14,190 nt of DNA from a virus (IMGVR_UViG_2778261619_000008); one strand, 5' to 3'. Positions 1,532 to 14,190 are shown, numbered from the stretch's first letter. Notes: generated by a model not told the origin, from the sequence alone. Translations and numbers: made by a program.

Positions 1532-1741
1532 TTAATTTGAATACAATGCAATTCTCGAGGACTGAAGTTTCTCGCAATTAAAATTTATCAGTTTTACTTT
1601 CTGCTCTCTGGAAACGCCTGCTTCTTTTTTACCTGAGAGCATTTTTTCGCATTCTGATTTCGTTAGTTTAGATTTTGAATATCTTGTCCAGTTAGTAGGA
1701 GTGCCACCTTCCTTTTCAATAGTGGCGGTAATTTTATACAT
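1532..1741 (-). CDS. ydaC: Small prophage protein YdaC (RcbA-like), 69 aa
   Basis: Within track ORF 1532..1813. The ATG at 1741 (MYKITATIEKEGG...) is preceded by GGAGGTG 3 nt upstream. It overlaps the 3' end of ralR by 8 nt. Confidence 0.8.
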   Translation of the reverse strand: MYKITATIEKEGGTPTNWTRYSKSKLTKSECEKMLSGKKEAGVSREQKVKLINFNCEKLQSSRIALYSN

Positions 1742-2794: not shown

Positions 2795-5387
2795 TTGCAT
2801 ATTCCTTAGCCCAGCGGGGCAGTGATAATGTCTTAATAGCTGGCCATTCATCGGTATTCAGGCAGTCAGACAGGGTTCGCAGATTGCGGTGATATTCCTG
2901 TTGACCTGCCAGTTTTGCTTCTTCGCCCATCATGAAAATTTCAACCGGATAACGTCCGCATTCAATAGTTGTGCTGGCAACCAGAAAAACGAAAGTTGGC
3001 TGCACTCCAAACTGTGCTTCATAACCGTCACTGTAGAATGCATCCTGAACGTGATAGCGGTAGTCGTAATAAGCGGTTTTGAATCGTTGAATATCCGCCG
3101 TAGTTTTCACGTCCATGATCCAGTGAAATTCAGGGATAATTTTGTCCGGACGGCACCGACACAAAATTCCTGTTTCAGGATCTTCCCAGTAAATTGATGA
3201 TTCAGCGTGTCCGGCGCTTTCAACAAGCCATTGCCCCAGCGGCAAAGCCATAACGCTTTGATACATGAGTTCAATTTTCCGGCCTTCTTCCGCAGTGATA
3301 ACCGTTTTTCCTGTGCTTGCGCATTCCATCAGAAACGCTTTCTCTTCTTCTTTTCCGGCGTTTGTACGGCGGTTAAATTCAGGTGCTACGATAAAGCGGT
3401 TACTGAATTCTTCCGGTTCAAGTACCCGGCAGTGGAAAGCAGTTCCTAAATCGAGCGTTTTTGTCTTTGTGGTGTCCACGGGGGCATTTTTACGCCACAA
3501 ATATAGTGCCGGAGTATCAGCAATGTCATCGAGCTGAGACTTACTGATACCGGGACCCGCGTGGTAATTCTCATTCGAAATTCCGTAATAAATACCTGGC
3601 TCTATGTCTTCTACGATTACGGGATCTGCGACTTCGCCAGTTTCATCACTGCAATCGCGATGGGGATCGCTGCCAGCATTCTCATTGTGCGGATGTTCAG
3701 CGCCTTCCATTTCCTCCGGATCATTTTCCTTAGCTTCAACCTGACTCTCTTCATCGAATGTTTCCTGGTATGTTGCGTCGCCCATCACCGCACCACAGTC
3801 AGGGCAGTTATCCCCGCCAGTCTGGCCGCAGGCATTGCAGGCTATTTCCGGTTCCTGTTGCACTACTGGCTCAGGTTGATTCATATCTGGGCTGGTTTTT
3901 TCCGTTTCTGGCTGGTTCTGGTACACACAATCGCGAGTCTGGATCCCCTTTACCCATTTCGGATCGTTCGGGTCGCTAATTCCGTCAACAAATTCACCAC
4001 GTGATGCAGCAAGCAATTTATCGGCATCGACAGGATTTTTTGATGGAATGTTTTTCCGGGCTTCATGGAGTTCTGCCCGCAGTTCCTGATATTTCGCATC
4101 AACAGAATTTACCTGTGACTGAGCATCCAGCGGCTGCGTGTCCTGATGATGTTCAGTTGCGTCCGGTTCCATTGTTTCAGCCTCTCCCTGTTCAACTGCC
4201 GTTGTTCCAGATGGTTGCGGTTTTTCTTCATCATCCTGTTTTCCTTCTTCTGTTACTCGCTGCGGCATCGGGGCAGAGGAGCGACCGCAGGCAATATCCA
4301 CGATTTCCGGATCAGGGTTGGCATGATCGGTTTCAGTCAGTACTTTGTTCAGATATTCAGTGACGTGCGCGGGGATGACCTCGATCCCAATTGGTGCTTC
4401 TTTTACGGACGCAACCACGATGGCGCGGGAATAATCCAGCCCGCCAGGCATGGTGATGAATTTGTCGCGGAAAACAGAAAAGGGCGGTTTATTTTCAGCG
4501 ATAATTTCCTCAATGCGTTTAGCGTGTGCCGGATGAAGGTTATAGATGTCCAGATCCATTGAACGGGCCAGTACGCCAGTGGCTACGTCGCGCGCCAGTG
4601 ACGTCAGATCGTGTACGAAACCTTCGCCGCGATCGGTGAGGTTTCCGCCGCCAGCATTAGCACCGGAAGCCGTGCGAGTGATGTGTGAAACACGATTACC
4701 CTTCATCCACTCTTTTGTCAGCAGTCCTCGATCGGTGTAGTCAGCGTTCAGGTATGCTTCGAAAAAAGCAGTTATCAGTCCCAGGTTTGAATTACCAGGA
4801 TTAGGGAAAACTTTGTCAGTGTCACGAACCAGTTTGTGGAGTTCGCGAATTTCCAGCGGGTCGAGCAGGCTGGTTTTGTGGGAAACAGCCAGGGCAGTAA
4901 CAGCCGGTAGTTCTTCAGCCCGAGCAATGTGTAATGCCTGGAGTCCGTCGCGTGAAACGTGCGTTACCGGTTTTTCGCTGCCGTGTTGAGCAAGCCAACG
5001 AATGGGCAGTTCCTGGCCAGAAATTGGGAGTAGCATATTCTCCTCAATCTCAGTCATGTCTTCGCCGTTGACGTTGGTATTGCCTTGATAGTGAGCGTTG
5101 TCTGGTGCTGCTCCCGGTTTTAGTTCCCATGTCATGGAGTCTTTGCTGAGTTGATAGCGTTCACTCCAGGTAAAATCGATCTCACCTTCAGCGGGCAGGT
5201 CATTAACGACAGGAAAATTCGTGGCAACAGCTTTAAAATAGCTGCTCAGTTTTTTACCTGACTTAACGATCAGGTAGTCCAGAGTGGCACAGGTCGATTC
5301 AAAATCGTTGCTTGCCCACAGGACGACGTCAGGTTCACCGGATGATTTTTTCGCTTTCCGTAACAGGAAGAGTGGTTTTGTGCTCAT
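2787..5387 (-). CDS. recE: RecE exonuclease VIII (5'-3' dsDNA exonuclease), 866 aa
   Basis: 866-aa track ORF ([24 protein letters not shown]...) with an acidic low-complexity middle and a C-terminal nuclease domain. Matches Rac RecE in sequence and length. A GAGG Shine-Dalgarno lies 9 nt upstream. Confidence 0.94.
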
Positions 5388-12402: not shown

Positions 12403-13071
12403 ATGACAGTTGCTGATTTCAAACGTCCTAAGTTGGAGCTCCCAAACGGGGCAAACAAACTACTATTACACTCTTGTTGTGCACCATGTTCCGGTGAAGT
12501 GATGGAGGCTCTTCAGGCCTCAGGAATCGACTACACCATCTTCTTCTATAATCCGAACATTCATCCTCAGAAAGAGTATTTGATTCGTAAGAATGAGAAT
12601 ATTCGATATGCTGAACAACATGGTGTACCGTTTATCGATGCTGATTACGACACTGACAACTGGTTTGAGCGAGCCAAAGGAATGGAATGGGAGCCCGAAC
12701 GTGGGAGGCGTTGTACTATGTGTTTTGACATGCGTTTTGAACGGACGGCGCTGTACGCCGCTGAAAATGGTTTCAGTGTGATCAGCAGTTCACTGGGCAT
12801 TTCTCGCTGGAAAAATATGCAGCAGGTTAACGACAGCGGACGGCGAGCTGTCGCACATTATCCGGGCATGGTGTACTGGGATTATAACTGGCGCAAGCAG
12901 GGAGGCTCGTCCCGCATGATTGAAATCAGCAAACGCGAACAATTCTATCAGCAGGAATATTGTGGTTGCGTGTATTCACTTCGCGATACCAATTTACACC
13001 GCAAATCCCAGGGACGCCCTCTTATCAAAATTGGTCAACTCCACTACGGTAAAGAAGAAGGGCAGGAATGA
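12403..13071 (+). CDS. queH: Epoxyqueuosine reductase QueH-like (DUF208), 222 aa
   Basis: The translation contains the [11 protein letters not shown] motif near the N-terminus and a later CxxC ([16 protein letters not shown]), which I recognise as the DUF208/QueH signature. The RBS is weak. Not verified by search. Confidence 0.75.
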
Positions 13072-13380
13072 TTTTTACATTACGTCAACAGAGTGTCACA
13101 ACGTTTCTATATATGGTATGCCGACCGTAATTTTCGAATCATCATGACTAATAGGCAGGTCACCTATGCCAGCAATGACCTGCTCATCTTGAAATTAGCA
13201 GAAATCTTGTAGCTATGATGTAGCTCAAAATAGTTTTTCATTCTTTTACCTGATGTCTGTTCCTGGCTGAAAACAGACTGTATTATTTAATTACGCACCA
13301 CTGACACTTGTTTATTGAAGTAGTGAGTACAAAGCCACATATTTATCAGTGTATGTATACGTCAAAAACAGGAGATTGTT

Positions 13381-13470
13381 GTGCTGGTTCTGAAGTGTGC
13401 GTTAGCAATAGTGGCTGTGGTGGCAATTTATTGCCTTGTTGTTGTTCTTATGGAGCGACTTTCTGATTGA
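13381..13470 (+). CDS. Candidate small hydrophobic peptide, 29 aa (GTG start)
   Basis: Hand-translated: AGGAG at 13370-13374, then GTG at 13381, giving MLVLKCALAIVAVVAIYCLVVVLMERLSD, a single predicted transmembrane helix with a charged C-terminus. It is below the ORF-track cut-off. Confidence 0.3.
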   Translation: MLVLKCALAIVAVVAIYCLVVVLMERLSD

Positions 13471-13615
13471 TTACATACTGGCTAAAAAAAGCGTTTGCCT
13501 GGTTTATCTTTGTCCGGCAAGGTGCGCTCATTAATCTGAAGTAAATTTATTTCTTAAGTATTCAGATTACTTCTTATGGTCGAAGTCTCCTGGCAATGTA
13601 GAACCAAAATATTTA

Positions 13616-13653
13616 CAAAAAGGAGACCCGTCGGGGATAGCCCTGCCGGGTCT
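13616..13653 (-). terminator. Candidate Rho-independent terminator after the yeaR-like gene
   Basis: On the minus strand, a GC-rich hairpin (GACCCGGCAGGG / CCCCGACGGGTC, about 12 bp with 2 mismatches, loop CTAT) is followed by CC and a TTTTT run. It lies about 30 nt downstream of the stop codon. Confidence 0.55.
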
Positions 13654-13682
13654 GACTGTTAAAGCATTTTTAATATGATCAT

Positions 13683-14021
13683 CTATTTTTTGGTGCTATA
13701 GACTTTTTCGCCTGAGAAGTCTGGAGCGACCCAAAAGTTAATATTAAACTGAGCATCATCGCTTAGTTCAACACGGTGCCAGTATTGTGGTGGGCTTGTT
13801 GCAAAAGAGCCAGCATTAATAACTACTTTTATCTCTGGTTCAGTAGTATTCTCATCAGCAAAACCATAATATGTTACAGTGCCTTCCATTACGCACAACT
13901 GCCCAAAAACACCTGCTGCTGTATTATGATGTGTTAATAATGCTGAAGGTACGTTCTCTTTTGTGAAGAACGGAGTTGAGCGTTTGATTACCCAATCTTT
14001 AGGAATTCTCTTGTGTGTCAT
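13683..14021 (-). CDS. YeaR-like DUF1971 protein (tellurite-resistance TehB-associated domain family), 112 aa
   Basis: Track ORF 13683..14027 starts at a GTG. The ATG at 14021 has AGGAGG 5 nt upstream. The translation (...RSTPFF...HHNTAAGVFGQLCVMEGTVTYYGFADE...AGSFATSPPQYWHRVEL...FNINFWVAP) follows the YeaR/DUF1971 pattern as I remember it. Confidence 0.75.
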   Translation of the reverse strand: MTHKRIPKDWVIKRSTPFFTKENVPSALLTHHNTAAGVFGQLCVMEGTVTYYGFADENTTEPEIKVVINAGSFATSPPQYWHRVELSDDAQFNINFWVAPDFSGEKVYSTKK

Positions 14022-14036
14022 AACCACCTCCTATAA

Positions 14037-14059: not shown

Positions 14060-14190
14060 TTGAGGAGTTATGTCAAGCTGTTATGAAACACATAATTGAT
14101 ATGTTGATTAGAGGATAGACTGGCCCCCTGAATCTCCAGACAACCAATATCACTTAAATAAGTGATAGTCTTAATACTAGTTTTTAGACT

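Follow-up and report, generated by a model that had tools for sequence, protein, structure and literature searches.

The 611-bp gap between queH and a yeaR-like DUF1971 gene in an E. coli prophage raises the question of whether a 29-codon frame inside it encodes a membrane peptide that is expressed by the lysogen and, if so, whether that peptide is a type I toxin. Our preferred reading, to which we give a probability of about 70%, is that the frame probably encodes a real, expressed membrane micro-protein which is not a classical type I toxin; it is drawn from comparative sequence analysis together with published ribosome profiling of a homologue.

A 29-codon frame between queH and DUF1971

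The DNA analysed here (IMGVR_UViG_2778261619_000008; 14,190 nucleotides, hereafter the window) represents a Rac-like lambdoid E. coli prophage inserted beside ttcA, with the order intR, xisR, ralR/RalA, recET, kilR, sieB, repressor genes, ydaT/V, DUF1627, DUF977, queH, the gap and DUF1971. One bona fide type I system is already present in it, the toxin-antitoxin pair ralR/RalA known from the Rac prophage, with a full-length RalA sRNA opposite ralR (1557-1735, plus strand; Rfam RF02694, 225 bits). Up to position 14119 the window is 99.97% identical to strain AMSCJX02. At 14116-14190 it leaves this homology and enters an IS3-family element, presumably an IS2-like end, that is located ~12 kb away in AMSCJX02; the comparison places the insertion just past the start of the DUF1971 gene. 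The features of the region are as follows.

12403 to 13071, plus strand: queH (epoxyqueuosine reductase), a cargo gene upstream of the small gene
13315 to 13320, plus strand: -35-like hexamer TTGAAG of the small gene, kept as TTGAAN in 37 of 44 unique upstream variants
13338 to 13343, plus strand: -10-like hexamer CATATT of the small gene, invariant in the locus-type alignments
13349 to 13380, plus strand: predicted 5' leader of ~30 nt containing AGGAG, based on GGAG conservation
13381 to 13470, plus strand: the small gene, 29 codons from GTG to TGA, predicted product MLVLKCALAIVAVVAIYCLVVVLMERLSD, based on sequence reading, conservation and selection
13471 to 13487, plus strand: the shared module's 3' tail (TTACATACTGGCT...), the end of the homology with hok-type loci
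13484 to 13529, minus strand: strong intrinsic terminator, a stem with a 7-U run in the minus-strand fold, part of the DUF1971 module
13614 to 13653, minus strand: first intrinsic terminator of the DUF1971 gene as predicted by folding, GACCCG...CGGGUC then UCCUUUUUGU
13683 to 14027, minus strand: DUF1971 (yeaR-like) gene, convergent with the small gene and in the usual place of the hok/sok cassette

The frame reads as originally predicted, with the Shine-Dalgarno sequence AGGAG at 13370-13374 followed by 6 nt (ATTGTT), GTG at 13381 and 29 codons ending in TGA at 13468-13470. The unannotated gap of ~600 bp noted in the original prediction measures 611 bp from the queH stop (13071) to the DUF1971 stop (13683), and RefSeq annotates nothing in it in identical genomes. 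The peptide is hydrophobic (GRAVY 2.06; best 19-residue window 3.07), and AlphaFold2 run on the family alignment predicted one continuous helix over residues 2-29 (pLDDT 91.8).

The frame is conserved as a protein

We fetched 130 copies of the small gene with a search pattern in which most of the first 26 nt are fixed, so that an intact 5' end is required. Disruption of the frame in close relatives, which the original prediction had named as a sign against the peptide, was rare; ~126 of the 130 copies keep 29 codons with neither indels nor stop codons, the exceptions being one IS1 insertion (strain XH993), one 31-codon form and two contig ends. Within this close family selection was analysed over codons 10-29 only, i.e. 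those outside the fetch pattern. Variable sites at codon positions 1, 2 and 3 numbered 9, 6 and 14, pN/pS was 0.46 in the frame of the small gene compared to 0.81 and 0.57 in the other two frames, and synonymous changes were in excess of random draws preserving the transition/transversion ratio (P=0.006). All 18 distinct replacements were conservative (I/V, A/V/T, M/V/I/T, D/E/N, R/H, S/T, L/F and C/F), with P=0.0002 when evaluated by mean BLOSUM62.

A profile search of 1.84 billion representative proteins recovered three diverged subfamilies with members at E down to 4e-15, one of 34 residues in EHEC and EPEC, MSDDISLAMEGALAV(V/I)AVVGVYCLVVFLMDRLGN, one of 30 residues, MLAALKGFVAILAVVAIYCLVVVLMDRLSD, and one of 29 residues, MLIIKGVLAIVIVVAIYCLVVTLWERLSD; the window's own allele is not present in the protein collection. 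Between subfamilies, over 23 alignable C-terminal codons, dN/dS was 0.08-0.29 compared to 0.5-2.6 in control frames, and synonymous sites were almost saturated (pS 0.4-0.7). Constraint is strongest in the core A-(I/V)-Y-C-L-V-V and in the tail (D/E)-R-L-(S/G)-(D/N), and the Leu and Arg codons of this tail differ synonymously between subfamilies, indicating that the constraint is on the protein and not on the DNA or RNA. Chance alone could give a short hydrophobic ORF in AT-rich spacer DNA. Given the synonymous excess, the conservative replacements and the low dN/dS between subfamilies, the conservation seen in these alignments goes beyond chance, and the comparisons indicate that the 29-codon frame is a genuine, selection-maintained protein-coding gene of lambda-like (Rac/Qin-type) prophages.

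The same figures bear on the possibility that the ORF is non-functional, translated pervasively or not at all, and conserved through a position as recombination linker or promoter in lambdoid mosaics. It sits at an exact mosaic junction with upstream cargo and downstream modules exchanged, and it has been lost in some prophages without obvious consequence, both as this explanation would have it. A dN/dS far below that of the control frames, exclusively conservative replacements and the intact frame of nearly all copies make it highly improbable.

A putative promoter precedes the small gene

The homology common to every locus type extends from TATTGAA to ~16 nt past the stop codon of the small gene, and its left end coincides with the TTGAA -35 element. 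In the 37 motif-bearing upstream variants the spacing from TTGAAN to the -10 hexamer is always 17 nt, and CATATT is exact in 36 of them across 12 different spacer sequences (TTGAAN-17-(C/T)ATATT); the -35 is altered in 7 of the 44 unique variants, and GGAG lies 6 nt 5' of the start codon in 40 of the 44. Such a pattern, in which the hexamers and their distance stay constant and the sequence between them varies, is characteristic of promoters. TTGAAG and CATATT match the sigma-70 consensus at only 8 of 12 positions, a weak match that explains why a simple promoter scan did not list the pair. The gene of the 29-residue subfamily, whose start codon in the close family is always GTG, would be transcribed from this weak sigma-70 promoter of its own, TTGAAG-17-CATATT, with a predicted start at about 13348-13351. 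The diverged subfamilies carry a Shine-Dalgarno sequence and ATG or GTG at the same place but lack the TTGAAN-17-CATATT promoter, and there the small gene closely follows the preceding gene.

Compared with the autonomous accessory genes known as prophage morons, the small gene has a candidate for an own promoter in the hexamer pair conserved over 12 spacers, the lysogen RNA and ribosome signal described below coming only from the Sakai subfamily, which lacks this hexamer pair. An own terminator is lacking: after the small gene in the window we found no convincing plus-strand intrinsic terminator, only weak hairpins inside the gene.

The slot to the left of the small gene takes up different cargo in different prophages, including the window (12403-13071). 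The cargo seen in this slot comprises queH, an MFS transporter with gamma-glutamylcyclotransferase and a LysR regulator, DUF4145, ORF6N and various hypothetical genes. In the window a 9-bp hairpin with a weak U tract lies 83 nt past the queH stop (13154-13184, plus strand; GGCAGGUCA...UGACCUGCU) and may be a partial terminator between queH and the small gene. The majority locus type carries ~170 nt of conserved non-coding sequence before the small-gene promoter, as well as a conserved hairpin, GTCCGCTT-CTCGCTCA-AAGCGGAC, ahead of it (about 3880-3905 in locus L002, with equivalent positions in L007, L009 and L132); both are missing in the window type. A second conserved hydrophobic ORF of 27 residues, M(N/T/S/I)WPEAF...VY.ICRWG, sits just ahead of the small gene at 12 of the 140 loci fetched, where it overlaps the stop of the preceding gene (ATGA); it is located at 2770-2853 in L135, at about 3345-3428 in L141 (Sakai Sp6) and just after 2806 in L008, and is missing from the window.

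The usual downstream neighbour is hok

Downstream of the small gene, the 126 copies with enough flanking sequence carry a hok/mok/sok cassette of the hokD/hokW type in 109 cases and the DUF1971 module in 16. The window copy is not adjacent to hok and is followed by DUF1971 as in those 16 relatives; hok synteny is typical of the family and not obligatory. In hok-type loci 8-9 nt separate the stop codon of the small gene from the -35 of the downstream hok promoter (TTGGCG-17-TAGAAT), the bases that match window positions 13471 to 13487 forming this -35 (TTGGCG or TGGAGA). The stop codon is ~45 nt upstream of the conserved hok mRNA 5' end, which we take to be at GGGTGCTTGAGG... by comparison with the R1 hok mRNA. 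The first plus-strand intrinsic terminator of these loci lies after hok, and with none ahead of the hok end the transcript of the small gene probably continues into hok. The 34- and 30-residue subfamilies are also located upstream of mok/hok. Between the small-gene stop and the hok promoter, the EHEC subfamily has an insertion, a perfect inverted repeat of 10 bp (CGATATGGGAATTCCCATATCG; 2995-3030 in L135, 3568-3600 in L141), which could be an operator or a hairpin.

E. coli B has queH and the small gene as in the window, followed by hokD. As judged from these alignments the window junction is a mosaic, its left side like E. coli B and its right side the DUF1971 module, in which the hok cassette was replaced by the DUF1971 gene with two terminators and the small gene was retained alone. 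The hok/sok neighbour is the most informative context of the family and, being replaced in the window, was invisible to the original prediction. The strain of the window-type orphan copy also has a second, hok-linked copy. The 212-bp tail of the DUF1971 module (13471-13682) is ~96% identical between alleles, compared to ~88% for the small gene, in which the differences are mostly synonymous. On the minus strand this tail contains two tandem intrinsic terminators ~85 nt apart with more hairpins between them, and no promoter for the inter-terminator stretch was found within it. Other frames of the 212-bp spacer were rejected as coding since a 2-nt indel interrupts them or most of their differences are nonsynonymous, and minus-strand ORFs over the small gene are short and not conserved.

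The tight and repeated juxtaposition to the hok promoter in three diverged subfamilies could also reflect a cis-acting upstream ORF, of which the act of translation and not the peptide tunes transcription or folding of the downstream hok mRNA. The last codons are indeed kept as remnants wherever hok is kept, and some hok loci retain these codons only, e.g. strain Ecol_542 with queH-TGA-tttt-ATGGATCACCTTTCTGATTGA. We consider this explanation very unlikely: the amino acid sequence is conserved and the nucleotides are not, the tail Leu and Arg codons differing synonymously; the small gene persists without hok in the window and its 16 counterparts; it is found in only 4 of 50,697 phage records; and many hok loci function without it, e.g. 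hokW of Sp5 (PMC8621323). An O157:H7 prophage holds a degenerate remnant of the small gene, and it is absent from many other hok loci. The gene is dispensable: IS1 has cut it in XH993, and beside hok some other prophages keep remnants of it. At loci where no hok adjoins it, it remains intact and its differences are mostly synonymous, which speaks for independence from hok.

The Sakai homologue is translated in growing cells

Huecker et al. (2017, PLoS One, PMC5597208) listed XECs145 (MCYLSVGVKTFAGIHTKGGNMSDDISLAMEGALAVIAVVGVYCLVVFLMDRLGN) among 465 translated intergenic ORFs of O157:H7 Sakai, and its sequence contains the 34-residue homologue of the small gene (PMC5597208). In LB, XECs145 had an RNA RPKM of 79.1, a ribosome RPKM of 346.1, a ribosomal coverage value (RCV) of 4.35 and a coverage of 0.99; in BHI the corresponding values were 121.3, 150.1, 1.14 and 0.84, and under cold/osmotic stress 73.3, 1.1, 0.01 and 0.37 (PMC5597208, S2 Table). 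The thresholds of that study were 0.25 for RCV and 0.5 for coverage, and short annotated genes had a mean RCV of 1.55 in LB (PMC5597208). The current Sakai RefSeq annotates the core as ECs_5710 (34 residues), in prophage Sp6, 189 nt upstream of ECs_1520, which is itself annotated as mokC.

A homologue of the small gene is thus transcribed and efficiently translated in an uninduced growing lysogen, with the reservation that reads in multi-copy prophage DNA can be mis-assigned. The signal belongs to the Sakai 34-residue subfamily and not to the 29-residue subfamily of the window allele, and so the ribosome profiling suggested in the original prediction as a check has a strong outcome for the homologue only. 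This efficient translation supports a real gene and speaks against a tightly silenced toxin. Taken with conservation and selection at the protein level, it upholds the earlier proposal of a translated single-helix membrane peptide with a strong ribosome binding site.

The small gene and type I toxins

Type I membrane toxins are peptides of 19-35 residues with a single hydrophobic helix and a short charged end, and some are prophage- or island-borne. The small peptide resembles TisB/IstR-1, ZorO/OrzO, DinQ/AgrB, ShoB/OhsC, Ibs/Sib and Ldr/Rdl in size and in its hydrophobic transmembrane helix, being 29 residues long. Unlike these systems it has neither an antisense or divergent sRNA nor a long, structured leader, and its Shine-Dalgarno sequence is not sequestered; its tail is acidic and those of type I toxins are basic, and its homologue is freely translated in growing cells.

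The original prediction had seen no obvious antisense partner, and a promoter search agreed with it: over or beside the small gene no sigma-70-like antisense promoter was found in the window or in two hok-type loci by a consensus-based scan, which can miss weak promoters. Searches of Rfam at the gathering threshold and at E <=10 returned no family at the small gene, with hits at chance level and RalA elsewhere in the window. A cis-encoded antisense or adjacent sRNA antitoxin was hence not found. The minus-strand terminator at 13484 to 13529 ends 14 nt from the small-gene stop codon, and from their predicted folds the tandem DUF1971 terminators shield the small gene from antisense transcription rather than supplying any.

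A conserved structure that would keep the mRNA inert was likewise not seen. RNAalifold gives the small-gene mRNA a weak consensus (-12.5 kcal/mol) in which a closing helix is missing, the mean unpaired probability from Shine-Dalgarno to start ranges from 0.13 to 0.59 between alleles, and the window mRNA folds with z = -0.95. Several individual pairings were considered and rejected. A 5'-3' helix, GUAUGUA:UACAUAC, is part of the window minimum-energy fold and is neither in the centroid nor conserved across alleles; an anti-Shine-Dalgarno pairing, CAGGAG:CUUUCUG, is absent from the centroid and from other alleles; and a leader stem enclosing the ribosome binding site in the majority allele is broken without compensation in the window and E. 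coli B alleles. Synonymous variation of tail codons in the other subfamilies also undercuts functional pairings of the mRNA.

The type I option of the original prediction therefore loses its support with the missing antisense promoter, Rfam family and conserved Shine-Dalgarno-sequestering fold. In the form still to be weighed, the peptide would be a type I-like membrane toxin that depolarises or permeabilises the inner membrane and is restrained by RNA, e.g. by Sok acting on read-through transcripts of hok-type loci. The small hydrophobic helix, the prophage location directly beside another type I toxin and the invariably weak GTG start of the 29-residue subfamily are in keeping with this, as is the hok-type mRNA, which probably includes the Sok target since no plus-strand terminator precedes the hok end. 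Set against it are the lack of an antisense promoter and Rfam hit, the terminator next to the gene in the window, the short leader with no conserved Shine-Dalgarno-sequestering or 5'-3' closing structure, the intact small genes that have no hok/sok neighbour, and the rank of the Sakai homologue among the better-translated small ORFs of exponentially growing cells. On balance we regard a toxin of this kind as unlikely.

Relation to known small membrane proteins

Pfam, NCBIfam and PHROG models gave nothing meaningful with the small peptide, the best match being an ATP-synthase c-subunit helix (E=0.023). Literature searches with peptide strings and the accession returned no paper on the 29-residue form; neither the hokW-sokW paper nor the Pas sRNA preprint mentions the small gene, and the supplements of 'Cryptic Bacterial Microproteome' contain no match to the peptide. 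It belongs to an uncharacterised family of small prophage-encoded membrane proteins that is listed in databases as hypothetical protein and in one ribosome profiling catalogue. The window peptide shares the profile match and the core and tail motif with WP_000960667.1, WP_249534103.1 and ECs_5710/XECs145, and all of these take up the same place in lambdoid prophages, with replication or cargo genes on one side and the Q region on the other. Sakai ECs_5710 differs from the window peptide by a longer acidic N-terminus, giving 34 residues, and by the absence of a separate promoter; the window copy stands apart by its right-hand neighbour, DUF1971 instead of hok.

Hok/Gef proteins (PF01848; hokD of Qin, hokW of Sp5) are neighbours of the small peptide in most loci, probably on the same long transcript, and, like it, are small peptides of the inner membrane whose helix contains a cysteine. 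In contrast to Hok with ~50 residues, the small peptide has 29, of which five follow the helix to the C-terminus, and has no periplasmic domain, no mok-type overlapping frame and no fbi/tac. Kinship with Hok was rejected, as there was no match to PF01848 or another Pfam model at E <=10 and only generic helix similarity. The other option of the original prediction, a small membrane regulator, may still hold. In size, single helix and expression during normal growth the peptide resembles KdpF (29 aa), MgtS (31 aa), AcrZ (49 aa), MgrB (47 aa) and PmrR (29 aa), to which it is unrelated in sequence; it is phage-borne and not part of a host operon, and no gene other than hok is consistently beside it as a partner. 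Conservation on one face of the helix and a short polar tail fit partner binding as in the KdpF/MgtS type. YnfS of Qin (29 aa), also hydrophobic, of ~29 residues and found in a prophage by ribosome profiling, is unrelated in sequence.

A micro-protein of this kind would insert in the inner membrane as one transmembrane span and, at its native level, would be a small membrane effector rather than a killer. The core alanines of the helix are three to four residues apart, and the most constrained core together with the charged tail suggests specific helix-helix or tail contacts rather than generic membrane damage, so that the small peptide probably binds a membrane partner in the lysogen. The alanine-rich face and the conserved charged tail may contact Hok or another membrane protein of host or phage, and host uptake proteins used by other phages would be another candidate partner. 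The resulting lysogen phenotype might be modulated Hok-type killing, a change in lysis timing or exclusion of other phages.

A more specific proposal adds the small peptide to prophage hok/sok modules as a third, previously unrecognised protein, transcribed together with them from a point just ahead of the hok promoter. It would explain the hok-side position of three subfamilies as well as orphan copies in genomes with hok elsewhere. We hold this proposal to be doubtful, and the same goes for its further part, that the peptide interacts with Hok as a brake or immunity factor or as a helper timing killing or lysis. Proof of a functional link to hok would raise the interest of the gene.

Distribution and significance

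A 151-nt query covering the small gene detected the module in 1946 of 5426 complete E. coli genomes (about 36%), the matches being 76-100% identical; a genome can hold as many as 3 copies, 13 of the places are on plasmids, and carriers include E. coli B/BL21 and EHEC. Annotation in E. coli is almost always absent and occasionally consists of a 29-residue 'hypothetical protein', WP_000960667.1, and GenBank holds scattered 'putative membrane protein' entries for the family, including E. albertii. All relatives found were in Escherichia and Shigella or on a small number of unplaced metagenomic contigs, and an exact-pattern 25-mer scan of species-representative genomes matched Shigella flexneri only. 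K-12 has no small gene, and in its Qin prophage relBE lies directly upstream of hokD.

The small gene is among the commonest un- or barely annotated coding sequences of E. coli prophages, and it lies at the border of a hot-spot for cargo, adjoining a toxin cassette that has been studied well. Deletions or clones described as 'hok/sok' may contain or omit a second membrane peptide. Lysogens and isolated phages with and without the gene exist, which makes it a tractable small-protein target. Among isolated temperate phages a DNA search found the gene in HannyBb, Tritos, Evi and mEp460, which tblastn with the 29-residue peptide did not match since short hydrophobic queries are filtered out. Recognition of the gene improves annotation, e.g. 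in HannyBb, where two ORFs are called across it on the opposite strand. Isolated phages also have an annotated 38-residue ORF between hok and rem (4044-4160 in L132; 4045-4161 in L131).
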